Assembly (NCBI GenBank): GCA_963827985.1
Contig: CAWHDI010000043.1
Span: forward strand, 2,401 to 66,400
DNA from: an uncultured Chloroflexia bacterium
GTDB taxonomy: Bacteria > Chloroflexota > Dehalococcoidia > GIF9 > UBA5629
DNA: 64,000 nt
Direction: 5' to 3'
Below, one piece after another: positions 2,048 through 20,310 of this stretch. Positions within the stretch are counted from its first letter, which is position 1, and each line of letters starts with the position of its first letter. Position numbers and translations under genes: made by a program. Under the pieces are notes generated by a model. That model saw nothing but the letters and a program-made list of their open reading frames with translations. It was not told the origin of the DNA and made no database searches.

Positions 2048-3406
2048 ATGAAGGATAAACTTCTCTCCGCTCTCAGAGGGCAAAAAGCAGATTATATAGA
2101 AATCCGCCTTGACGAAAGCAATTCAAGCCGGCTGGTTTTCCGCGGGGAACGCCTGGAAGAAGCAGGCAGAAGCTCGAGCACGGGAGGCAATGTCAGGGCC
2201 CTGGTACGGGGCGGATGGGGATTCGTCAGCTTTAACAGCCTCAACAACCTGGCCGAGCATGTTTCACTTGCGATTGAACAGGCGCGGCACGTGGGAAAAG
2301 AGGTAAGCCAGTTCAGCCCGGTAACACCGGTGGTTGATGTTGTTGACGCCGCTTACAAGAAAAACCCCCTGGATATATCGCTGGCTGCCAAGAAAGGACT
2401 GCTGGATGAATATAACCGGCTGATGCTGGGGACCCCCGAAATACAAACGACAAGCATCAGCTATGCCGACGGGAAGAAAAAGGTGACCCTGGCGACGTCG
2501 GAGGGCGCATATATTGAGCAAAGCCGCATAGACGTAAATTTAAGGCTGTCCGCCATCGCCAGCCGTGACGGCGACGTGCAGCAGGTGGGCCTGAGCATCG
2601 GCAGCAAGGGTGATTTTTCGACGGTGGAGAACCTGCAGGAAGAGGCCCGCGACATCGCCCGCCGTGCCGTGGCAATGCTATCCGCACCCCGCGTCGAAGG
2701 TGGCACTTATACGGTGGTGCTGGATCCCATCTTGGCCGGGGTTTTCGTCCACGAGGCGTTCGGGCACCTTTCGGAAGCCGACCATATATACGAAAACCCA
2801 CAGTTGAGAGAAGTAATGGTACTAGGCCGCCGGTTCGGGGGCAAACATTTGAATATCGTCGACGGCGCGGCGGTACCTGGTTACAGGGGCAGCTTCAAAT
2901 ACGACGACGAGGGAACGCCGGCAACCAAAACATATCTTATTCAGGAAGGGGTGCTTAGCAGCCGGCTTCATTCCAGGGAGACGGCAGCGAGGATGGGAGA
3001 GAAGCCGACGGGCAACGCCAGGGCGATCAACTACACATTTCCTCCCATTGTCAGGATGACCAATACTTATATCGAACCGGGAAAAACGAATTTCGCAGAT
3101 ATAATCAGTGATATCAAAGAGGGCGTGTACGCCAAGGACTGGTACGGCGGCACCACCAGCCTCGAGATGTTCACTTTTTCGGCCGGCGAAGCGTACATGA
3201 TCAGGAACGGCAAGATAGCTGAGATGATCAAGCCGGTCGTACTGTCAGGAAATGTTTTCACCACGCTGGATAACATTGACGCCATTGGCGACGACCTGGA
3301 CATGAACCAGGGAGGCGGATGCGGCAAAGCAGGCCAATCACCTCTGCCCGTTTCCAATGGAAGCCCTCATATACGGATCAGGAACTGCCTGGTTGGAGGA
3401 AAGTGA
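2048..3406 (+). CDS. tldD: TldD family metalloprotease
   Basis: HEAFGHLSEAD zinc motif, YDDEG, GNARA, RMTNTYIEPG, and C-terminal CGKAGQSPLPVSNGSPHIRI. Start taken at ATG 2048 after AGGTG. Confidence 0.95.
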   Translation: MKDKLLSALRGQKADYIEIRLDESNSSRLVFRGERLEEAGRSSSTGGNVRALVRGGWGFVSFNSLNNLAEHVSLAIEQARHVGKEVSQFSPVTPVVDVVDAAYKKNPLDISLAAKKGLLDEYNRLMLGTPEIQTTSISYADGKKKVTLATSEGAYIEQSRIDVNLRLSAIASRDGDVQQVGLSIGSKGDFSTVENLQEEARDIARRAVAMLSAPRVEGGTYTVVLDPILAGVFVHEAFGHLSEADHIYENPQLREVMVLGRRFGGKHLNIVDGAAVPGYRGSFKYDDEGTPATKTYLIQEGVLSSRLHSRETAARMGEKPTGNARAINYTFPPIVRMTNTYIEPGKTNFADIISDIKEGVYAKDWYGGTTSLEMFTFSAGEAYMIRNGKIAEMIKPVVLSGNVFTTLDNIDAIGDDLDMNQGGGCGKAGQSPLPVSNGSPHIRIRNCLVGGK

Positions 3407-4705
3407 GTGGAAAGGATACTATCCATAGCGCGTAAGCACGCGGACGCCGCCGAAGTGTTCCAGGTAAACTCCCGCAGGACGCCGGTACAATTCGAAGCTA
3501 ACCGCCTTAAGCAAATACAGACAAAGGAATCTACCGCCACTGCCATACGAATTGTTAAGAACGGCAGGATTGGCTTCGCCCAGGCTAGTGGTAATATAGA
3601 CCCTGATGAACTGGTCAAAATGGCGCTGGATACCAGCCAGTTCGGCTATGAGGTCAACTTCGAATTTCCTTCCAGCCAAACTTACAATGACGTGGAAGTA
3701 TACGACAAAGATATCGAGAATATCAGTATCGACAGCATGGTTTCTCTGGGAGAAACAGTCATCAAGGCGGTCTGCGATAACACTCCCGGCATAATCTGCG
3801 AAGGTAGCGTGGCACACGGCACCGCCACTTTCGCGATAGCCAATACCAGCGGCGCTTCTGCAAGCTATAAACGCACGAATTCCGGTATCAGCATCGATGG
3901 AATGCTGGTAAGAAACGGTGACATCCTGTATGTGGGTGACATACTGACTTCCTGCCACCCGGTAACCGGCCATGAGCCGGTCACCCGCGAGATTATCAGG
4001 CAATTGGACCTTGCCCGCAATAGCGCCAGCATAAAATCAGGTACGTTCCCGGTGATTTTTACACCCTACGGTGTTTCGGGCGCACTGATCGCGCCCCTGA
4101 TCTCTGCCCTGAACGGCAAAATGGTGCTCGACGGCGCTTCGCCTCTTAAAGATAAGATGGGACAGACAATCCTGGATAAGAAATTCTCATTCAGCGACGA
4201 CCCCACTCTGCCCTTCCAACCCGGAAGCACTCCTTTCGATGATGAGGGCATTAAGGCCCGAAAAAATATGCTCATTTACCGCGGCACTGTGACCCAATTT
4301 TATTATGATCTACATACCGCTGCGCTGGCCGGTACGACCAGCACGGGAAATGGAAACCGGAATGGGGGGATGCCATCACCTGCGCCGCACGCGCTTGTTA
4401 TTGAAGGTGGTGATACCCCGTTCCAGGAAATGGTAAAGGGCATAAAAGAGGGCCTTGTTATCGAGCAGCTTATGGGAGCAGAGCAGGGGAATATACTGAA
4501 CGGCGATTTCAGCGGCAACGTCCTGCTAGGCTACAAGATCGAAAATGGTGAAATAACGGGACGAGTCAAGGATACCATGGTCTTTGGGAACGTATATCAG
4601 CTACTGAAAGAGATTACTGCCCTTGGCAACGATTCGCGCTGGATTGGAGGCTATGTTAACACACCGAGCATTTTCTGCCCGTCTATTTCAATTTCTGCAA
4701 AATAG
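3407..4705 (+). CDS. pmbA: PmbA/TldE family protein
   Basis: PFDDEG, STGNG and GDFSG...GYKIENGEI motifs without HEXXH. GTG start directly follows the tldD stop. Confidence 0.9.
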   Translation: MERILSIARKHADAAEVFQVNSRRTPVQFEANRLKQIQTKESTATAIRIVKNGRIGFAQASGNIDPDELVKMALDTSQFGYEVNFEFPSSQTYNDVEVYDKDIENISIDSMVSLGETVIKAVCDNTPGIICEGSVAHGTATFAIANTSGASASYKRTNSGISIDGMLVRNGDILYVGDILTSCHPVTGHEPVTREIIRQLDLARNSASIKSGTFPVIFTPYGVSGALIAPLISALNGKMVLDGASPLKDKMGQTILDKKFSFSDDPTLPFQPGSTPFDDEGIKARKNMLIYRGTVTQFYYDLHTAALAGTTSTGNGNRNGGMPSPAPHALVIEGGDTPFQEMVKGIKEGLVIEQLMGAEQGNILNGDFSGNVLLGYKIENGEITGRVKDTMVFGNVYQLLKEITALGNDSRWIGGYVNTPSIFCPSISISAK

Positions 4706-4709
4706 TCAG

Positions 4710-5531
4710 ATGAAGAAATTAGTCAATTTTCGTAAAGAACCGCGGCCCAAAGCTTGCGAGCTGATTGCTGCGTGGCCGGGCATTGGAAACCTCTCCCTGA
4801 TCGTTGCCCGTTACCTAAGGGAAAAGCTGGCTGCCGAGGAAATCGGTGAGATCGAACCGTTCACTTTCTTTGATCCAATCGGCGTTATGGTAAAAGATAA
4901 TATTGTGGAAGAACCCCAGTTCCCGGAAGGAAAGTTTTACTACTGGCATAACACAGCAGGTAAAAAGGACCTCCTATTTTTCATCAGTGATGAACAACCT
5001 ACTTTCAAAGGTTACGACCTGGCCAATTTCATTTTGGATATCGCCAAGAAATTCAAAGTGCAGCGTGTTTACACTTTCGCTGCCGCGATAGCCAAGATAC
5101 ACCATACGGAAATGCCAAAAGTCTGGGGAGTGGCAACAGACTCATCCCTGGTAACTTTTCTCAAGAAATTCGATGTTGTGCTGCGCGGCAGGCTGCAGAT
5201 CGCCGGGCTTAACGGCCTCTTACTCGGGGTAGCCAGAGAAAGGGGCATGGAAGGCCTATGCCTGCTGGGCGAAGTCCCCTCATACACCACGAGGATCCCA
5301 AACCCGAAAGCCTCCCTTGCGGTGATGAAAGTGCTGCTTAAGGTACTTGATATCCAGATCGACCTGAGTGACCTGGCCAAAATAGCGGAAGAATCGGACC
5401 AGCAGATGAAAAGACTGGCCGCCCAGGCCATGGGTGAATACATCGACAGGTATACCAGGCCGATATGGCCCCCGCCTGAAGACGAAGAGGAGTTCGAGGA
5501 CGAGGAGGACGAGGAGGATGAGGAGGACTAA
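4710..5531 (+). CDS. PAC2 (proteasome assembly chaperone 2-like/ATP-grasp-associated) family protein with acidic tail
   Basis: IAAWPGIGN, FFISDEQP, IAGLNGLLLG, CLLGEVPSY and PNPKAS motifs. C-terminal EDEEEFEDEEDEEDEED. Confidence 0.85.
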   Translation: MKKLVNFRKEPRPKACELIAAWPGIGNLSLIVARYLREKLAAEEIGEIEPFTFFDPIGVMVKDNIVEEPQFPEGKFYYWHNTAGKKDLLFFISDEQPTFKGYDLANFILDIAKKFKVQRVYTFAAAIAKIHHTEMPKVWGVATDSSLVTFLKKFDVVLRGRLQIAGLNGLLLGVARERGMEGLCLLGEVPSYTTRIPNPKASLAVMKVLLKVLDIQIDLSDLAKIAEESDQQMKRLAAQAMGEYIDRYTRPIWPPPEDEEEFEDEEDEEDEED

Positions 5532-6464
5532 ATGGACCCGAAAGAGCGCGAAGTTGGACAAGTAATAGACAAGGTATTCGGCCCTGAGAGCGAACTGCTT
5601 AATGCCGATGTGGCCGTGCTATCCGACCTGAACAGGGATGGCCTGGCGAAGTTCAAAAAGGCCTGGGAAAAGGCGGACTTTGAGGAACGATTGCGCCTGA
5701 TAACAAAGATGGTAAGCCTCAGTGAAGACGACTTTATCCTGGATTACACCGGGATATTTATTATGGCGCTGAACGATCCTCAGGAGAGCATCCGCATTAA
5801 GGCGCTGGAAGGCCTGGAAATGGAGGACAAGTACAACAATGCCAGGCCCATTATTAAGGTTTTGAAATCTGATGAATCCGCAGAAGTCAGGGCGGCAGCG
5901 GCCCGGGCACTGGGCAAACTTGCCCTCATGACAGAATGCGGCAATATACCCGACCTCATAGGCCAGGAAATATTTAATGCCCTGTTGGAAGTACTGGAAA
6001 AACCGAAGGAGGATGAAGAGGTGCGGCGACGTGCACTGGAGACGGTGGCCTGCTTCCACCAGGAGCCGGTGGACCGATACATAGAGGACTACTATTACAG
6101 CGAGGACCCGAAGATCAAGGCAAGCGCCATTTTTGCCATGGGTTTTAATTGCACCGAGCGCTGGTTAAACTTGTTGATTGACGAGATGCAGAGCGAAAGG
6201 TCCGAATTCAGATTTGAAGCCGCACGCTCCAGCGGTGAAATCGGGGATGAGGAAGCGGTACCTCACTTGATCAAGCTGCTGGACGACAAAGACCAGGAAG
6301 TACAGGACGCCGCAATCATTTCATTGGGCAAAATAGGCGGCGCCGAGGCAAAACGCGCGTTACAAAAACTTAGCAAATCCACTGATGCACGGATCAAAGA
6401 TGCGGCCAAGGCCGCTCTGACAGAGCTTTCAGCTTGCGAAGATCCACTATCTTTGAGTTTCTAA
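5532..6464 (+). CDS. HEAT/PBS-lyase repeat protein
   Basis: Repeated D..EVR..AA.ALG units (EVRAAAARALG, EVRRRALE, EVQDAAIISLGKIG). Confidence 0.85.
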   Translation: MDPKEREVGQVIDKVFGPESELLNADVAVLSDLNRDGLAKFKKAWEKADFEERLRLITKMVSLSEDDFILDYTGIFIMALNDPQESIRIKALEGLEMEDKYNNARPIIKVLKSDESAEVRAAAARALGKLALMTECGNIPDLIGQEIFNALLEVLEKPKEDEEVRRRALETVACFHQEPVDRYIEDYYYSEDPKIKASAIFAMGFNCTERWLNLLIDEMQSERSEFRFEAARSSGEIGDEEAVPHLIKLLDDKDQEVQDAAIISLGKIGGAEAKRALQKLSKSTDARIKDAAKAALTELSACEDPLSLSF

Positions 6465-8477: not shown

Positions 8478-9155
8478 GTGAGGAGAATTATTGGGACCCT
8501 CGTTGCACTCGTAGTGGCAGTATCATTGGTGCTGATACCGGCAGCCACAGTCTCAGCCGACCTGGGTAAATGCACGGGTTGGGACAAAGTTAAATGGGAA
8601 AATAACCAGAACTCCTGGAAGCTATATCTCCAGCACTGGGGAAGGACGCCGACCAGCGCTCTTTCCAGGCTTGCTGGCCTTTGCGGCCCGGATAAACTTT
8701 GTTCCGGCGTATGCAATACCTCCAAATGCCCGAAGCCCACTGGTTGCGATATCAACCAGTGCCTGGGTGGTTGCAGCAACTGCAATACCGAAGCAGGAAC
8801 TCTGGGATCGGCTTGCACCGATTCACAGAAATGCCTGAATCCGGCCACCAAACCGACCTCACTTCCGCTTGATGATTGTCCGCTGAATTGCCCGGCGAAC
8901 ACGACCACAGCCGGCCTCGGCACTTCGAAGTGCTCGGGCTGCTGGGGCAAGAGCCTGTCTTTTGCCGGCAAGAGCTGGGGTGCCGCTGATATCGGCACCA
9001 ACGCACTCATCAACAACAACCAGATGAACCACTTTGGTTCCGGCAAACTGGGCGGCGGTGACTGGGGTATTACAGGTAGCGCACATCCTGAATGTCTCGC
9101 TCAGACCTGGGCACTCCAGAACAACCTTCTGGCCAAATGCAAAATCTGCAAGTAA
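8478..9155 (+). CDS. Secreted cysteine-rich hypothetical protein (225 aa, 18 Cys)
   Basis: Sec-type signal peptide MRRIIGTLVALVVAVSLVLIPAATVSA, strong RBS, own promoter and terminator. No family recognised. Confidence 0.8.
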   Translation: MRRIIGTLVALVVAVSLVLIPAATVSADLGKCTGWDKVKWENNQNSWKLYLQHWGRTPTSALSRLAGLCGPDKLCSGVCNTSKCPKPTGCDINQCLGGCSNCNTEAGTLGSACTDSQKCLNPATKPTSLPLDDCPLNCPANTTTAGLGTSKCSGCWGKSLSFAGKSWGAADIGTNALINNNQMNHFGSGKLGGGDWGITGSAHPECLAQTWALQNNLLAKCKICK

Positions 9156-11151: not shown

Positions 11152-12658
11152 ATGGCCGGGCAGGAACGCATCGAACAACCGCGCCTGGAAAAACTGTCCA
11201 GAATTATCAGCCGCGGCATAAATCCTTATCCATATCAATTTCCCCGCACTCATACCTCCATTGAAGCCATAGAGCTATTCGAAAAATCCTCGGCCCAGGG
11301 ACCGGAGAGCACTCCAGAGGAGGTCAGCCTTGCAGGAAGAGTTACAGCAGCCCGGTTCATGGGCAAGGCTGCATTCTTCGATATACGTGACGGTTCAGGC
11401 AAAATACAGGCATTTTTCCGCCGCGATTCATTGGGGGACGAGAACTACGAGCTATTACACGACATTGACCTGGGTGATTTTATCGGTGTGAGGGGAGTAC
11501 TGTTCAAGACGCGGTCAGGCGAGATAACAGTCGAAGTCATAGATTACACCATACTCGCAAAGACCCTCATGCCACTGCCCGAAAAGTTCCACGGACTGGT
11601 GGACGTTGAAAAAAGGTACCGCCAGCGCTACCTCGACCTTATTGCCAATGAGGATATCAAAGACCTGTTCGTTAAACGCAGCAAAATAATCAGTACAATA
11701 CGAAGTTTTATGGATGGTCGTGGGTTTGTAGAGGTGGAAACTCCCGTGCTTCAACCCATGTACGGAGGCGCACTGGCAAGGCCTTTCATTACCCACCATC
11801 ATGCTCTGGACCAGGACCTCTATCCCAGGATAGCCCTTGAGCTCTATTTAAAGAGATTAATTATTGGCGGATTCGACAAAGTCTATGAAATCGGCAGAGT
11901 ATTCCGCAATGAGGGGATATCTACAAAGCATAACCCGGAATTCACTATGATGGAGAGCTACGAAGCGTATGCTGACTATCGCGACGTGATGAAAATGACC
12001 GAGGAACTTGTCAGCACCGCCGCCAGAGAAGTGCTGGGTACGACGTGAAATCCCCTACGCAGGAGAGATTATCAAGCTGGACCCACCCTGGAAACGGCTT
12101 CCCTTCAAGCAAGCACTGATGGATAAATGCGGAATCAATTTCACGGATTATCCTGACGCTGACAGCCTTAGAGTAAAAATGGGACAGATGGGCATGCAGG
12201 TTGACCCGCTTAAGGACCGCGGCCGTTTGATTGATGAATTGCTCTCAACTTACGTGGAACCCGACCTCAAACAGCCAACCTTTCTAATCGACTACCCTAT
12301 CGAGATGTCGCCGCTGGCCAAGAAACACAGGGATGATCCGACACTTGTAGAGCGCTTCGAGGCTTTTATCGGCACCATGGAGGTCGCAAACTCCTTCTCG
12401 GAGCTGAATGACCCCCGCGAGCAGCGCGAAAGGTTCATACAGCAAAGGCAAATGCACGCCGCTGAAGTAGAGCGTGCCATAGCCGCCGGAGAGCTCCCGG
12501 AGACTGAGATGATTGATGACGATTTCATCACGGCCATGGAACACGGCATGCCCCCCACGGGAGGTCTGGGGATCGGCATCGACCGTCTAATAATGTTGTT
12601 GACCGATAAGCAGTCCATCCGTGAAGTGATATTGTTCCCACAGCTCAAGACCCGGTAG
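11152..12658 (+). CDS. lysS: Lysine--tRNA ligase (class II); one apparent +1 indel near 12046
   Basis: OB-fold anticodon domain, [23 protein letters not shown] in the first frame. [29 protein letters not shown] in the second frame. Confidence 0.97.
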
Positions 12659-14101: not shown

Positions 14102-15706
14102 ATGACTGAAGGTCAATCACAGACGGGACCGAGATTCTGCCGACAATGCGGTGGGGTCGTCCCCGAGGGAACGGCCCTATGCCCAAGGTGCGGGCAGAAG
14201 TGGTACATGGACCGCACCGAACAACAGGGCGTGGACCTTTGGCAGAAGATAATTGAAAAGAGGGCCGCATCGGGTGTGGGAGGAGGTCCATCTGCAGAAG
14301 ACCAGGGTAAATACCGGTGTCCAAATTGCATGGCAATCTTGAAAGGTCCCGCCGCCGTCTGCCCTCACTGCGGCCAGAGCACAATCAAAGCGAAAATTGT
14401 ACCGACTGACCGTGATACGGAGAATGCAGAAGGACAAGCCGGGGAAGATAAGCTGAACCTCCCGGATGCCGCCAAAGGACTTGCATCAATTAAGGGCGCT
14501 ACCAAGCGGGCCGCCAAATTCAAAGGACGGAAGCGCGTCAGGATCCTGGACGCCATTATCATTGCGGTCATTGTCATCGTTGTAGCGGTAATGGGATTTA
14601 TATTGGCCCGTCAGTATGGGCTGCTGCCGTCTTCCCTGTCATTTTTATCGTCCGCCAAACCGTCAACTCAGCAGCAGGCGACAACTGCCGCCACACAGAC
14701 CACCCCAACAATTTCCGGAATAATGGCTTCGGACCTGACTTCAGACAGCGCAGCTATATCATGGTCGACTGACTCGCCTTCCTGGGGCAAGGTACTTTAC
14801 GGGAAATCCGACTCTTACGGCGAATCAGCTCTTGCCACACTACAAATGAGCTCACAAAAAGTCGTTTTAAAGGGCCTTGAGCCAACGACAACTTACCACT
14901 TCGCCATAGCTGTGACGGATGGAAAAGGCCAGGAGATATCCCGCAGCGAAGACAAGACTTTTAACACTCCCGCGGCTACTGACATAAAGCCGCCGATGTT
15001 ATCACAGTTAAAGGTTATTCCAACGGATGTCGGCGCGATTATACAATGGGTCACCGATGAACCGTCTACAAGCCAGATAATATACGGCTCCGATCAAACG
15101 GTCACAAATTCGACTCAGGTTGACTCACGGCTTGTAAAAGAGCATTCAGTGCATTTGAACGGGCTGGAAGCAAACAATCAGTATTATTATCGCTTAAAAT
15201 CTGCAGATGCAGCAGGCAATGAAACCGTGATGGATCCCGAAGGGGTTTTTACAACGCTAATAACTGTACCAATCGGTTCCAGAGTGGGCGAACGCGCAGC
15301 CGACTTCACTCTGCCAATTTTCCAGTCGCAGGACAGTGCGGTCCTGCGAAGCTACAAAGGTCAGAAGATTCTTCTGACTTTCTGGGCTGTCTATTGCCCC
15401 GACTGCGACCGCGAGCTGGCATTGCTACAGGCTCTCCAAAACAAGAACTTACCCAATGTGAAGATAATAGCCGTAATAGTTGAAAGTAAGCCTGAGGACA
15501 TAGAAAAGACCATCGCCAGGTATAAGGCGGCCAACGGCGACCTTACCTTCCCTGTGGCGGTAGATGCCTATAAGACAACAGCTCACCTGTATAATGTCGA
15601 AAAAGTGCCGTGCACCTTCTTCATAGACAGCGACATGATAATCCGTAATATCGAATTCGGCGGCTTTAACGCGGACCAGGTCGAGCAGATACTCAATGAT
15701 TTATAA
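14102..15706 (+). CDS. Zinc-ribbon x2 / TM / FN3 x2 / TlpA-like redoxin (CPDC) protein
   Basis: CRQC..CPRC and CPNC..CPHC ribbons. Basic stretch then TM (ILDAIIIAVIVIVVAVMGFILA). Two W-x-TD...Y-x-Y FN3-like repeats. AADFTLP..FWAVYCPDC..VPCTFFID thioredoxin fold. Confidence 0.85.
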   Translation: MTEGQSQTGPRFCRQCGGVVPEGTALCPRCGQKWYMDRTEQQGVDLWQKIIEKRAASGVGGGPSAEDQGKYRCPNCMAILKGPAAVCPHCGQSTIKAKIVPTDRDTENAEGQAGEDKLNLPDAAKGLASIKGATKRAAKFKGRKRVRILDAIIIAVIVIVVAVMGFILARQYGLLPSSLSFLSSAKPSTQQQATTAATQTTPTISGIMASDLTSDSAAISWSTDSPSWGKVLYGKSDSYGESALATLQMSSQKVVLKGLEPTTTYHFAIAVTDGKGQEISRSEDKTFNTPAATDIKPPMLSQLKVIPTDVGAIIQWVTDEPSTSQIIYGSDQTVTNSTQVDSRLVKEHSVHLNGLEANNQYYYRLKSADAAGNETVMDPEGVFTTLITVPIGSRVGERAADFTLPIFQSQDSAVLRSYKGQKILLTFWAVYCPDCDRELALLQALQNKNLPNVKIIAVIVESKPEDIEKTIARYKAANGDLTFPVAVDAYKTTAHLYNVEKVPCTFFIDSDMIIRNIEFGGFNADQVEQILNDL

Positions 15707-15726
15707 CCGGCAGGTTCAATAATCGC

Positions 15727-15755
15727 TTGACAGTAGATCGCTCCTCATGTAGTGT
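15727..15755 (+). promoter_or_regulatory. Putative internal sigma70 promoter
   Basis: TTGACA (15727-15732), 17 nt, TAGTGT (15750-15755). Confidence 0.6.
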
Positions 15756-15844
15756 AATATTGAAGATGCAAGTATGTAAATATAAAGTGAGTGGCAGCGG
15801 GCGAACAATGCGCACGCCTGATTGGCTTCAGGGGAGCAGTCTCA

Positions 15845-16483
15845 TTGGATAGTCAATTCAGGTGCGGTAAATGCGGTAAACCAATATCCTCCAAATATGC
15901 GAAGTGCCTTGACTGCGGGTCCTTGGGTCCTCATACTTTCACCGGTTCAGAAGGATCAGCCGTGGACGGTGGCCCGCCAGTTGCACATTCGCCAAAACGA
16001 AGGGATACGTATCCCGCAGAGCTCGTTGACAAACCACAGCCGCCTGTTAGCCGTCCACCTGAGCGGTACCAGGCTACCGAGCCGATGGACATTGCTGAGG
16101 ACGTGCCGCACCCACACGCAAGCCACGAGATAGACGACGATACAAGGTTCCCTGTGGGAATGCGACGCAGGAGCCCTATACTTGATTATGTTGACAACGT
16201 GGACGAATCCGAAGATAAGGAATCCAGGAGGCGCTCCAGCAGAGAAGACGACAGAGATTCTGAAGATGAATCCGACGAAGATGATCGCTACGTTTCATAC
16301 GATGAAGACCGGAGCGAAAAGCCGGCTCCCGAAAAGCCGGACAACACGCTGACCTTAATAATTAGCGTTATTCTAATTCTCCTGTTGGCCATTGCAGCCA
16401 TCTATGTAATTAATAATTACGACGCATTGACGAAATGGTTAGCGTCTCCGACGGTGCCTGAAATCTTCAAACCATCCGAATGA
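15845..16483 (+). CDS. Zinc-ribbon / acidic linker / C-terminal TM protein
   Basis: CGKC..CLDC ribbon, D/E/R-rich linker and TM LTLIISVILILLLAIAAIYVI. Likely TTG start at 15845 after AGGGGAG; the ORF track start is 15791. Confidence 0.75.
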   Translation: MDSQFRCGKCGKPISSKYAKCLDCGSLGPHTFTGSEGSAVDGGPPVAHSPKRRDTYPAELVDKPQPPVSRPPERYQATEPMDIAEDVPHPHASHEIDDDTRFPVGMRRRSPILDYVDNVDESEDKESRRRSSREDDRDSEDESDEDDRYVSYDEDRSEKPAPEKPDNTLTLIISVILILLLAIAAIYVINNYDALTKWLASPTVPEIFKPSE

Positions 16484-16518
16484 CTTTCATCCAATTGAAT
16501 TTAGAGGCTTAATCCGGT

Positions 16519-17881
16519 TTGAACGATCTGTTTAAATGCAAAAATTGTGGCGCACCCAGAAGCTATATCAATCAGTACTGCCCTATCTGTGAGTCCAGCG
16601 GTCCGCACATCCCTGCGGGCAGCAAGGCATCACGCTCACAGCCTGTAAAGCGCAAGGTGAATCCAGCTCCTTCACGGTGGGACGATTTCATGTCCGACGA
16701 AGAAACCGTGGTGAGCAAGCGCAAAGATACGCCCAAAAAAGAAAAAAAACGGGATTCTTTCAAACAACATGAGGAAAAGGATTCAACCGATGACGATAAG
16801 GAAATGCGGAGTTTATGGACCACCGGACGGTCTGCCAAACCGATCAGCAGAAAAACATGGAGGTCCATTGCGATAGCAGCAGTCGCTGTTCTTGCTTTAA
16901 TATTGATAGTTGTAAATCTGCAGGCTATAGCTCTGCAATTTCACAGTGCGGGCAAATGGATCACTGAGTTGATGACTTTTCACCCGCCTGCAGCAACCAC
17001 GGCAAATACCACAGGGAACAGTACGGGAACCGATAATAAAACCGCCCAGGTAAGCACTCAGGCACCGGTGACAAATCCGGCAAGCACAACTCCCATCGGG
17101 AAAAAGCCTGATGTGCCTAATTCTTCCAATCAAACGGGCGCTCAGACACCTGCAACCAATCCAACAGACACTACAAGGCCTGGGTGGGTAGAAAAACCCG
17201 TGGCACATACCGAGCGACACCTCGGCAACAATTGCATGGAAGACGGACGAAAAAGCAACTTCACTGGTAAAATACGGGACGGATACTTCATATCCATTCC
17301 CATCCACTGGGGACAGCGGCACCAGCCACAGCGTTTATATTACGGGGCTTACACCGGAGACCACTTATCATTACCAGGCAATCTCTTCGGATGAATCGGG
17401 AAATACCCTGACCTCCACAGATAACACGTTCACGACAAAACCTAAAACAAACGCAGCGCCTTATGCAGGATCCACTGCGCCTGATTTCACACTCCATGAT
17501 CTGGACGGCAATGAAGTCTCGCTAAGCCAGTACCGCGGGAAAAAAGTCATACTCAATTTCTGGGCGAGCTGGTGTACACCCTGCAAGATTGAGCTTCCAC
17601 ACTTACAGGCTACATGGGACAAGTACAAGGAAAGCGGCGAAGTGAAGCTGCTCACCGTAGCAGGCAGCCAGTCAGAGGAAGCTGCCATCAGGTCATATGT
17701 AAAAGACAACAACTATAATTTTACGGTCTGCCTGGATTCGGATGACAGCACCTTCAACAGATACGAGATTGTCAGCATCCCCAAAACATATTTCATAGAT
17801 AAGGGCGGGGTGATCCGCCGAGTTCAGCAGGGGATGTTCACTAGTCCCGGCGAAGTCGAGTTCATGCTTAACTCATATTGA
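16519..17881 (+). CDS. Zinc-ribbon / TM / T-P linker / FN3 / TlpA-like redoxin (WCTPC) protein; one indel near 17210
   Basis: CKNC..CPIC ribbon and TM SIAIAAVAVLALILIVV. After the frame change: SDTSATIAWKTDEK...GLTPETTYHY (FN3), then GSTAPDFTL..ILNFWASWCTPC..IPKTYFID..FMLNSY. Confidence 0.85.
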
Positions 17882-18025
17882 TCGCAGGCTGGCCTTTTGC
17901 CGGAAGAACACTGCCCTGATCCCTCATGAATTTGTGTGACCAACGCATTCCAAACTTGACATATAGGATATCTTGACTTACCTTTAATATAAAATTCCCA
18001 GGCCTGTTTAAATGGATAATAATTC

Positions 18026-20310
18026 ATGCCCAGTAGTATAACCTGTCAAAGATGTCAGTCCGTTAATGAGCCTTACGCCACGACCTGCCAAAAATGCGGT
18101 GCACGTTTCTGCCCCAATTGTAAGCTGGTAATAGACTCAGCCAGCGCAAGGGTCTGTCCTCATTGCGGCAAAACCGACCTGACATTCAAACCGGGCAAAT
18201 ACGCCGGCAGCACATATGTTGCTCAGGGCGTCTCAGGAGCGCCAGCCAGTCAGAACTATTGTTCCAACTGCGGCTCGAGAGTTGAGCCGGGCGTCAGGAA
18301 GTGCCCCTATTGCGGGCGGCTTGGGACCCTGGTAACCCAAACGCCACGGCAAGGATACGGCGTAATGAAGCCGGCACACGGCGAGCCGGATTATTCGTAT
18401 ACATCGCCGGAACCTGAACCTACTATAACGCAAAAAGTTTGCTCGAAATGCGGCACGCCCATTCCGCCGGGATCCAGCCTTTGCCCCATACACGGTAAAT
18501 TCGGTGGAGGTAGTCATCTTACTGAGAGCTCGGGACCGCTCATGCCCGGCAGGCATACCGGGGAACTGTGGAGAAAGATAGAAGAGAAAAGGGCCGCCAG
18601 TGCGGCGGCTGAACAAACGAGAGGAAGACCTCATAGAACTCCGCCGGAAGACCTGTACCCACAAATGGCATCCGGGCCATCTGCGCCGAGGGACATGGCA
18701 CCCCATGGCGCACCTGCTCAAATGGATGCGCCGGAATTGCGAACATGCCCGAACTGCGGCTCTTCCGTACCTGATCGCAGTAAAGTGTGTCCAAATTGCG
18801 GAAATAACCGACTGCCGGCGCAGAGAAGCCGGCCCATTGTAAAGGCGGAAGAATTTTACAGAAGCAGGGAGGGTTCGGCCCAGGAATACGCCGCTCAACC
18901 ATATCCCGCTCAAGCATATCCTGATCCTGCATATGCCACCTATATGCCTCCGGCGGACCCGTATTACGGGCAGCCGGCCATACAGCCGTATGAAGCAACT
19001 TACCCCGTGCCTGCGCCGGGCTTTATCGAGGAGATCAAGCCGGAGAAAAGAAGGAAGGAAAAGAAGCCCAAAGAAGTGGAACACCCCAGGGCCGACCGCG
19101 GACCCAAAAAGTCTCCCTGGCCAATGTTGTTTGCCCTGCTCGCACTGACCGGCGTAATCATCATTGCGGTGGTCTTAGTTATGGACATGTTGAAAACACC
19201 GCAGGCAGCTACAATGCCCAGCAATACCAACTCCAGCACGTGGTAGCGGAGCAAAGCCGCCGGTGATATCAAATATACAGCTCTCCAGATATCGATAAAA
19301 CAAGCGCCACGGTTTCATGGACGACTGACAAGAAATCCAGCAGCATCGTGGTATATTGCCTCGACGGCGGCACTCAATGTGAAAACGCCAAAGATGACAC
19401 GCTTGTAACAAATCATGTCGTGAAACTGACCAACCTGGAACAGGGGAAATCCTACCATATCACAGTCAAGTCCATAGTCAATGATGTCGACGCCAGCCTG
19501 GATGCCCTTACGTGCTGAGCTACCCTGGATGCAAAGTGGATACAACCCCTCCCAAAATCACCGATGTCAAAGTTAGTGAATATCGTCGGCACAGTACTTC
19601 AGCCACCGTTACCTGGAACACAGATGAACCGGCCACCAGCCAGGTCAGTCTACGGCACCACCGCGGCTACGGGACATATCAGCCCGAGCAAACTGACACC
19701 ACCCTGCTCAAGAGCCACTGATGTGACCCTGAACGGTTTGCCACCTGCCGACGACTTTCCATTACAAGGTGATTTCGCGCGACGCCGGCGGCAATGAAGC
19801 ATCATCTCCTGACGCAACGTTTCACTACTGCAGCCATGACTTCTTCATCGTCGGACCCCCTGGCTGCAATAGGTTGGCAATCCGGCGCCGGATTTCAGTT
19901 TACCATGTGTTGACGGAAGATCACGATGGACTTAAGTTCATACAAGGGAAAAAAGTCATAATAAACTTCTGGAACCTGGCCTGCCATTACTGCATGGAGG
20001 AAATGCCCGATTTTCAAAGCGATCAGGCAGAAAAACCCGGAGAGCAGCATCGCAATGCTAATGATCAATAGTGCAGTTGGCGGATTCACCGCTAGACAAC
20101 GGCAGCGTGGGTGACAGCCGGTTTCCAGCAAGGAACTACACATTTACCGTGCCGATGGACATGACCGGCAGCTGTTGCCCAGGCCTATAATGTAACAAAT
20201 GGCATACCGGTAACATTTTTCCTGGACGGCAACGGGATTGTTAAGAATACACAGGATGGACGTTCCAAAGCGCCAATGCCAATATCAGACCCATGCTGAA
20301 TTCCTATTGA
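18026..20310 (+). CDS. Zinc-ribbon x5 / TM / FN3 x2 / TlpA-like redoxin (CHYC) protein; C-terminal half broken by many indels
   Basis: Five CxxC..CxxC/H ribbons and TM MLFALLALTGVIIIAVVLV. Frame-hopping fragments SATVSWTTDKK..LTNLEQGKSYHI, DTTPPKITDV..TVTWNTDEPATSQV and GKKVIINFWNLACHYC, ending MLNSY like its paralog. Confidence 0.75.

Follow-up and report, generated by a model that had tools for sequence, protein, structure and literature searches.

A four-gene array of predicted outward-facing TlpA-like redoxins with FN3 stalks and zinc-ribbon heads, conserved in a family of Dehalococcoidia

Reductases of the TlpA-like superfamily are usually explained by a small number of substrates, namely apocytochrome c, Sco/CoxB, MsrAB and SpoVD. 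Here we analyse a four-gene array at positions 14102-20310 of a 64,000-nucleotide stretch (the window; contig C43, positions 2401-66400) from a 2.02-Mb metagenome-assembled genome (53 contigs; completeness 56%) of a Dehalococcoidia bacterium, in which redoxin domains of this superfamily are combined with zinc-ribbon heads and FN3 domains. With a probability of about 0.7, we read the stalked proteins of the array as CcdA-fed, outward-facing thiol-disulfide reductases or isomerases, with FN3 domains as stalks and modular zinc-ribbon heads as anchors. Among the described systems, ResA and StoA of Bacillus subtilis have the same thioredoxin (Trx) fold with TlpA-type additions (Foldseek TMt 0.84-0.88 for ResA and 0.77-0.79 for StoA), a WCxxC active site, a cis-proline, a membrane anchor at the N-terminus, a catalytic domain on the outer side (a prediction in the present case) and a ccdA gene in the lineage. 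However, their own anchor is short and comes without FN3 stalk or cytoplasmic domain, and the cytochrome c maturation pathway of ResA (CcsA) is absent from most array-carrying genomes. To our knowledge, no sporulation context is known for the lineage of the array. Rhizobial TlpA and CcmG/DsbE are likewise members of the TlpA-like superfamily with an N-in membrane anchor, but TlpA serves Sco1/CoxB of haem-copper oxidases, which were not found here (0 of 10 genomes), CcmG serves System I cytochrome c maturation, and NCBIfam scores for TlpA and CcmG were far under the cut-off. In the monoderm Streptococcus pneumoniae, Etrx1 and Etrx2 are surface-exposed reductases fed by CcdA (PMC3914529; PDB 4HQZ, 2YP6); they differ from the array proteins in being lipoproteins without stalks or cytoplasmic heads, and their partner is an extracellular MsrAB2, whereas MsrA of the lineage studied here has no signal peptide.

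All four genes of the array are encoded on the same (+) strand and begin with Cys4 zinc ribbons (2, 1, 1 and 5 copies in genes 1 to 4), followed by a linker and a single transmembrane (TM) helix. Two FN3 domains in gene 1, one in gene 3 and two in gene 4 then lead to a ResA/Etrx/StoA-like thioredoxin fold with the active sites CPDC, CTPC and CHYC, respectively. This arrangement had been proposed in an earlier sequence-only reading of the window, and every element of it was confirmed:

14102..15706 (+): gene 1, 534 amino acids (aa), intact
14138-14191 (aa 13-30) and 14318-14371 (aa 73-90), +: two zinc ribbons of gene 1, from motif reading
aa 38-56 of gene 1: conserved inter-ribbon helix
about 14543-14605 (+): TM helix of gene 1, preceded by a basic patch
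aa 204-288 and aa 300-384 of gene 1: FN3a and FN3b
aa 395-534 of gene 1: TlpA/ResA-like domain, with FWAVYCPDC at 15380-15406
15845..16483 (+): gene 2, 212 aa from TTG 15845, start set by orthologues
15863-15916 (+): zinc ribbon of gene 2, CxxC-x10-CxxC
about 16349-16411: TM helix of gene 2, with a long acidic disordered linker and a conserved 23-aa outside tail, NNYDALTKWLASPTVPEIFKPSE
16519..17881 (+): gene 3, about 450 aa once its single frameshift is bridged
16537-16590 (+): zinc ribbon of gene 3
about 16867-16929 (+): TM helix of gene 3, with a T/P/N-rich linker
about 17213-17437 (+): FN3 domain of gene 3
about 17465-17878 (+): TlpA/ResA-like domain of gene 3, with FWASWCTPC at 17558-17584 and the cis-proline motif SIP at 17774-17782
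18026..20310 (+): gene 4, about 760 aa when read through
18044-18097, 18110-18163, 18260-18313, 18440-18493 (Cys3-His) and 18746-18799 (+): five ribbons of gene 4
about 19121-19183 (+): TM helix of gene 4
19967-19993 (+): FWNLACHYC of gene 4
20293-20307 and 20308-20310 (+): MLNSY and stop codon of gene 4

For gene 2, orthologues favour the TTG start at 15845 (212 aa) over position 15791 (open reading frame, ORF, of 230 aa). The ribbons and the TM helix of gene 4 lie within one open frame of 406 aa, and its two FN3 domains and its redoxin domain are found beyond it. A scan for promoters and terminators gave nothing that would convincingly separate or join the four genes.

In the contigs around two of the database clusters of gene 1, the gene order is greA-lysS-serS-gene1(532)-gene2(212)-gene3(464)-gene4(737)-DUF308, with all genes intact, and serS is followed by the array at each of the 16 further syntenic loci that were read (16/16). 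A chance pattern can be discarded, since at least 16 other genomes, belonging to at least 6 genera, have the four genes intact and in this order behind serS. In the intact orthologues of genes 3 and 4, Pfam finds ribbon(s), TM helix, FN3 and Redoxin within one protein, and therefore a separation of ribbon and redoxin parts into different genes, which the sequence-only reading had considered as an outcome of polishing, is refuted for the family.

The assignment of the ectodomains as FN3 and TlpA/ResA-like, also proposed at first from the sequence, is supported by Pfam, by sequence matches in the PDB, by an AlphaFold2 (AF2) model and by Foldseek. For gene 1, Pfam reports DZR, two fn3/Pur_ac_phosph_N domains and AhpC-TSA/Redoxin. 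The Pfam evidence for FN3 in the array amounts to 40 bits with fn3 (cut-off 25) and 52.5 bits with Pur_ac_phosph_N (cut-off 30). Sequence matches in the PDB were Etrx2 (5e-26) and ResA (3e-24) for gene 3 and Etrx (2e-13) for gene 1, and the best solved relatives by sequence are pneumococcal Etrx2 (4HQZ/2YP6), ResA and StoA. The AF2 model of gene 1, built on an alignment of 37 sequences, has a mean predicted local distance difference test score (pLDDT) of 75.6, with values per 10-residue block of 81-93 for the FN3 domains and mostly 73-89 for the Trx domain. On the side predicted to be cytoplasmic, it contains ribbon hairpins at residues 11-33, a helix at 38-56, ribbon hairpins at 71-93 and a disordered segment at 97-121; a long TM helix (133-171) and a disordered linker (about 175-199) follow, and the ectodomain consists of two beta-sandwiches (FN3a, 204-288; FN3b, 300-384) and a Trx fold (403-533). 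When compared to the PDB using Foldseek, the Trx domain of the model matched full-length ResA, Etrx2, StoA and SdbA (TMt 0.77-0.88; root-mean-square deviation 1.7-2.7 Å), with TMt 0.85-0.88 and about 1.8 Å for ResA and Etrx2, and the middle of the model matched the tandem FN3 pairs of Neogenin, DCC and Tie2. The modelled Trx fold has an N-terminal hairpin and a central insert, as would be expected for a TlpA-like protein.

The FWxxxCxxC motif and the cis-proline are conserved, and the catalytic cysteines are invariant or nearly so among orthologues. ResA (NF002854) was the top NCBIfam model, at 75, 120 and 66 bits (cut-off 170), and scores were 53-92 bits for the StoA model (cut-off 210) and 24-52 bits for TlpA (NF047696; cut-off 230). 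By these scores, the stalked proteins are to be placed in the TlpA-like superfamily but outside every named equivalog. The 37 orthologues of gene 1 are 54-91% identical; in all of them the eight ribbon cysteines (8/8), the inter-ribbon helix WYMDRxEQQGxxLWQKIxEKR, the motif KGLxxIKGA and the cis-proline P503 are invariant. The active site is stable by lineage in gene 1 (CPEC or CPDC) and in gene 3 (WC[TGNS]PC), and the ribbon cysteines of gene 3 and of gene 2/3 are invariant (4/4).

Two cysteine features of the ectodomains were observed in addition. In gene 1, the residue right after the cis-proline (aa 504; 15611-15613) is a cysteine (VPC) in 29 of 37 orthologues and Y, T or R in the others; it is possible that this cysteine provides a third thiol of redox relevance close to the active site. 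In gene 4, FN3a contains a Cys pair, YCxxGGTxC, that is invariant in 17/17 orthologues (YCLDGGTQC at 19354-19380 in the window; aa 425/432 at locus L011) and for which a structural disulfide, a metal site or a role as internal redox partner may be considered.

With regard to topology, the numbers of Lys plus Arg in the 20 aa before and after the TM helix of the orthologues were 8.0 and 1.7 for gene 1, 4.8 and 1.6 for gene 3, and 6.6 and 1.1 for gene 4, and none of the four array proteins has a signal peptide. This charge bias bears out, as a prediction, the earlier proposal that the ribbons of genes 1, 3 and 4 are cytoplasmic, and the Trx domains are predicted to lie outside. The helix of gene 2 has an acidic N-flank. 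At seven loci read (G013, G185, G197, G201, G192, G171 and G173), genes 2 and 3 are replaced by a single protein of 583-622 aa, which consists of the gene-2 head, the acidic linker, the TM helix, a WLxxPTxPE tail, two FN3 domains and FWASWCxPC; in one genus, the fused (G171) and the split form (G190) occur in two different genomes. Because these fused forms have an FN3-FN3-Trx ectodomain behind the gene-2 head and helix, the predicted orientation extends to the gene-2 helix, with its C-terminal end outside.

The gene for CcdA (PF02683) was detected in 57 of 61 family genomes, in 30/30 high-quality genomes and in 25/25 genera. By comparison of coordinates, at least 27 genomes have ccdA no more than 4 kb away from a long FN3-redoxin paralogue. 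A cluster of trxA, ccdA, a lipoprotein TlpA, a TM-anchored TlpA and a long FN3-redoxin was read in three relatives; the trxA-ccdA clusters with two short TlpA-like proteins and at least one long FN3-redoxin are located at

L029, 5647-10320
L030, 5387-9438
L031, 5162-10727

and their long protein begins with a double zinc ribbon in genome G078 and is a protein of 785 aa with three redoxin domains and a coiled-coil N-terminus in genome G097. The co-occurrence with ccdA that the sequence-only reading had suggested looking for thus exists family-wide and beside paralogues, which makes a feed from CcdA to the array plausible. DsbB was not found in any of 10 genomes, nor was VKOR above cut-off (0/10), and therefore the only encoded transmembrane thiol-redox route is a reductive one.

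The clients of the described relatives are missing. CcsA/ResC (PF01578) was found only in genus g2 and was not found in G097, G195, G078 or the genome of the window; of these, G097 and G195 have the four-gene array in intact form, and G078 has FN3-redoxin paralogues, a full gene-1 orthologue not being found there. Considering the absence of CcsA from most genomes and the score under the cut-off for NF002854, a role as ResA proper with a client in cytochrome c maturation was rejected. The haem-copper oxidase COX1 (PF00115) was present in 0/10 family genomes, which is consistent with an anaerobic lifestyle, and with NF047696 also under the cut-off, a TlpA proper with a client in CuA assembly was rejected as well. 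MsrA of six relatives starts directly at the catalytic GCFWC region, without signal peptide, and looks cytoplasmic, and an exported Msr partner of the Etrx type was therefore discarded as far as MsrA is concerned. A secreted or anchored protein of 225 aa with 18 cysteines is encoded 5 kb upstream of the array (window 8478-9152), and its synteny is conserved; it shares 94% identity with the orthologue at locus L013, most neighbours being less conserved (73-94%), and it is conceivable that it is a substrate of a surface reductase.

Domain content, fold, conservation and synteny were observed, as was which partner pathways the relatives possess or lack, and the reading that we prefer builds on them. 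According to it, the array proteins of this monoderm Dehalococcoidia bacterium would span the membrane once, in type-II orientation (N-in, C-out), and genes 1, 3 and 4, which are ancient duplicates, would each expose a Trx-fold domain with CxxC on a stalk that combines a low-complexity linker with one FN3 domain or two. Electrons would pass from NADPH via thioredoxin reductase and cytoplasmic TrxA to CcdA and on to the outward-facing CxxC, which, once reduced, would reduce or isomerise disulfides of surface or secreted proteins. The heads, which presumably bind zinc, would be modular protein-binding anchors that the lineage puts on many type-II membrane proteins; they could not pass electrons through the single helix. 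Gene 2 would be a member with head and TM helix only, an anchor split off from a protein that is still whole (head2-TM-FN3-FN3-Trx) in other genera. As the active-site dipeptides and the stalk lengths are their own in each case, the three paralogues probably serve different substrates or envelope layers. That their redox potentials differ, as the sequence-only reading had it, is reasonable for genes 1 and 3 with their stable dipeptides and is weakened for gene 4, where the dipeptide drifts; different heights of the redoxins may be inferred from FN3 number and linker lengths only.

Several points weigh against this reading. No ccdA was found in the genome of the window, which is 56% complete, and neither ccdA nor trxA adjoins the array; no substrate was identified for the stalked redoxins. 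The CxxC of gene 4 varies widely among orthologues (CHYC, CAPC, CQYC, CSPC, CQWC, CPYC, CHFC, CGPC), and one orthologue of gene 1 (P0048) has lost both catalytic cysteines (FCAFHLPEF) and kept every ribbon cysteine; selection may therefore act on more than catalysis. The heads are as strictly conserved as the catalytic site (8 Cys in gene 1; 19 Cys and 1 His in gene 4), and the conservation of ribbon cysteines, helix and KGLxxIKGA exceeds what a passive anchor needs. Finally, about 12 indels fall within the 1.07 kb of the gene-4 ectodomain, far over the background of about 1 frameshift per 3 kb in neighbouring genes.

These indels (19242-20268) and the single frameshift of gene 3 (between 17175 and 17210) have to be seen together with those of other genes. 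In comparison with intact orthologues, lysS (window 11152-12658) carries a single frameshift near 12046, and the genes for spermidine synthase (about 7795) and for a DRTGG protein (about 10097) carry one each; because the essential lysS and two other upstream genes are affected, the assembly must make indel errors. Gene 3 is consistent with the background rate and has an intact same-genus orthologue of 448 aa (L038). It is unlikely, though it deserves consideration, that gene 4 and perhaps gene 3 are true pseudogenes in this strain, and that the array is decaying with gene 1 as the only stalked redoxin still working. Such a decay would account for the concentration of about 12 events in the gene-4 ectodomain as opposed to none in its 1.2-kb head. 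However, the damage consists of indels only, and the ectodomain, when read through, shows 68% identity to its same-genus orthologue, comparable to the undamaged parts (73-77%), without in-frame stop at aligned codons, so that it looks like an unpolished stretch and not like evolutionary decay; moreover, gene 4 is intact in 17/17 relatives read. The frameshifts of genes 3 and 4 are thus probably consensus indel errors of the assembly.

The zinc-ribbon heads were recognized by the Pfam models DZR (PF12773) and Zn_Ribbon_1 (PF13240), with scores of 29.4 for DZR in gene 1 (cut-off 27.3) and of 68.3 for Zn_Ribbon_1 (cut-off 25) and 64.3 for DZR (cut-off 27.3) in gene 4, and zinc binding is predicted; in genes 2 and 3 the ribbon motif is present with a Pfam score under the cut-off. 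Orthologues of gene 4 are intact in 17 genomes (723-758 aa), and their heads, of up to about 340 aa, contain 19 Cys and 1 His that are invariant across the 17 sequences. The head of gene 4 is homologous to that of gene 1 (tblastn with gene-4 aa 135-253, E=9e-7). When the gene-1 head was compared with 1.84 billion representatives by phmmer, only its own family was returned below 1e-30, and beyond that only generic multi-DZR and TPR proteins that gave no functional clue. In the genome of the window, seven more ORFs combine ribbons and TM helix without redoxin domain; some of these continue into an unrelated C-terminal part (FN3/Ig-like, S/T-rich, multi-TM), and others consist of the head only. 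Conversely, the anchor of FN3-redoxin ectodomains can also be of the lipoprotein or the coiled-coil type. The ribbon-TM head is, as judged from this distribution, a generic, reshuffled anchor module of this organism and not specific for redoxins. In haloarchaeal CdpC, zinc ribbons with long disordered linkers are essential protein-docking membrane-anchor modules, and Cys4 ribbons of the type CxxC...CPxCG next to long disordered linkers at the membrane are found here as well, although CdpC has an amphipathic helix in place of a TM helix, no ectodomain and no sequence relation beyond the generic ribbon. By analogy, the heads are most likely protein-docking modules. Rubredoxin-like heads that carry electrons were rejected, as one TM helix gives electrons no path. 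At locus L049 (G180, same genus), gene 1 is broken by TAA (7-1617), and a gene-3-like head-only ORF of 153 aa is followed by an ectodomain with a different ribbon head (2439-4316), an arrangement that is evidence of head swapping inside the array.

Docking heads could also hold the array together. The heads and TM helices of genes 1 to 4 might form one hetero-oligomeric envelope redox complex, possibly with CcdA/TrxA, in which gene 2, having only a head, would be the adaptor and the three CxxC domains would form a relay or a multi-height array. The gene order after serS, fixed in at least 16 genomes, the invariance of ribbon cysteines and inter-ribbon motifs, the homology of the gene-1 and gene-4 heads and the docking role of the ribbons in CdpC would all fit, and so would gene 2 itself. 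It has no catalytic domain, and Pfam gives nothing for it beyond a weak ribbon match; its orthologues are 70-75% identical, the same rate as its neighbours, and their outside tail (WLASPTVPE) is invariant, and therefore gene 2 appears to be under selection. Nevertheless, we consider one complex improbable. Nothing shows directly that the four proteins interact, and the heads change partners among ectodomains: genes 2 and 3 occur fused or split even inside a genus, and additional head-only ORFs exist (as in G180). Heads of a similar kind are also found on ectodomains of no relation to these, and other paralogues in the same genomes have a different anchor. We would give a similarly small chance to the extended proposal that the invariant heads are more than anchors and that a complex assembled through heads and TM helices, with gene 2 as adaptor, couples TrxA/CcdA or another cytoplasmic machine to three stalked CxxC domains that service novel substrates such as Cys-rich secreted proteins of these strict anaerobes.

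Rather than reductases, the outward domains could be disulfide-forming oxidases like streptococcal SdbA, or peroxiredoxins, for AhpC-TSA is the top Pfam model, SdbA is among the structural matches and the dipeptides of CPDC/CPEC and CHYC are unusual. This is very improbable, however. The motif is the FWxxxCxxC of TlpA/ResA and not PxxxTxxC, and peroxidase NCBIfam models gave only 20-40 bits, so that the Pfam name is misleading and a peroxiredoxin (AhpC/TSA) was rejected; the best matches in sequence, structure and NCBIfam are ResA, Etrx2 and StoA. An oxidase would find neither DsbB nor VKOR (above cut-off) to recycle it, ccdA is universal in the family and next to paralogues, and the lack of haem-copper oxidase, in keeping with an anaerobic lifestyle, does not favour this alternative either.

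Least probable do we find transmembrane redox sensors, whose outside CxxC would report the thiol state of the envelope and whose ribbons would bind or release a cytoplasmic partner in an anti-sigma-like or partner-switch manner, since the large and strictly conserved heads (five ribbons in gene 4) and the retention of one gene-1 orthologue despite the loss of its catalytic cysteines are outweighed by the lack of any sigma factor, kinase or other output gene linked to the array, by ribbons of the DZR type CxxC...CxxC, by a single helix between flexible linkers that would be a poor transmitter, and by paralogues beside ccdA that fit catalysis. A zinc-binding anti-sigma factor (ZAS) in particular was rejected, as the ribbons are CxxC-x10-CxxC and not HxxxCxxC and there is no sigma gene in the conserved neighbourhood.

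FN3-redoxin proteins were present in 61/61 sampled genomes and 25/25 genera of the GTDB family of the window, with 1-7 matches per genome listed at E<=1e-20, and 150 other genomes of the class gave two matches only, over the FN3 part alone. Among 301 Chloroflexota genomes, the Trx part alone had matches in 272, as ordinary TlpA-like proteins of 180-200 aa, and among the matches listed every alignment spanning FN3 and Trx came from the family of the window. Judging from these matches, the stalked form is an innovation at the level of the family that was subsequently amplified. The proteins most similar to those of the window are from Dehalococcoidia. For gene 1, more than 70 public database clusters with the same domain set and 53-91% identity exist, named at most 'redoxin domain-containing protein [Dehalococcoidia bacterium]'. 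Literature searches on the architecture of ribbon, TM helix, FN3 and redoxin found no paper specific to it; the earlier view of an undescribed layout thus holds as far as papers are concerned, whereas the sequences were already public, uncharacterised but not unseen. The array is a lineage-specific, uncharacterised build of a well-known kind of enzyme, and the enzyme chemistry itself is ordinary. Its interest lies in the substrates and in the strictly conserved heads. The family encodes 3-9 stalked copies per genome of 1-3 Mb, yet without systems for apocytochrome c, Sco/CoxB or MsrAB, which poses the question why a strict anaerobe invests heavily in surface thiol chemistry. The array also offers a clean natural case for the role of cytoplasmic zinc-ribbon heads on single-pass membrane proteins, a module that is very common in monoderm bacteria and archaea and still unexplained, and, with the fission and fusion of genes 2 and 3 and with head-only genes, a natural case for the reshuffling of anchors and ectodomains.

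Some minor observations concern the array and its surroundings. Genes 3 and 4 share the C-terminal sequence MLNSY, which was rejected as a sorting signal, as it is the end of the last Trx helix and paralogues finish with ..LNSL, ..LKSL or ..LDSLQ. At locus L013 (GCA_040961665.1), a DarT-Macro pair, a DarTG-like toxin-antitoxin, is inserted directly downstream of the array (16196-17962); this pair occurs neither in the window nor at L011. At L047 (G203) an ORF of 466 aa on the opposite strand is inserted between array genes 3 and 4 (4196-5596). In genome G000, contig C36 encodes a tandem pair of proteins (92130-93279) whose N-terminus has a B-box-like Cys/His zinc motif, with several TM helices behind it; a WNWGGFL..WIWGIGN motif is common to both. 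On contig C40 of the same genome (96576-98944), a protein with four ribbons and a TM helix (332 aa) and a protein with ribbon and multiple TM helices (179 aa) are placed around a TlpA-like redoxin, which is short (208 aa), secreted and encoded on the opposite strand.

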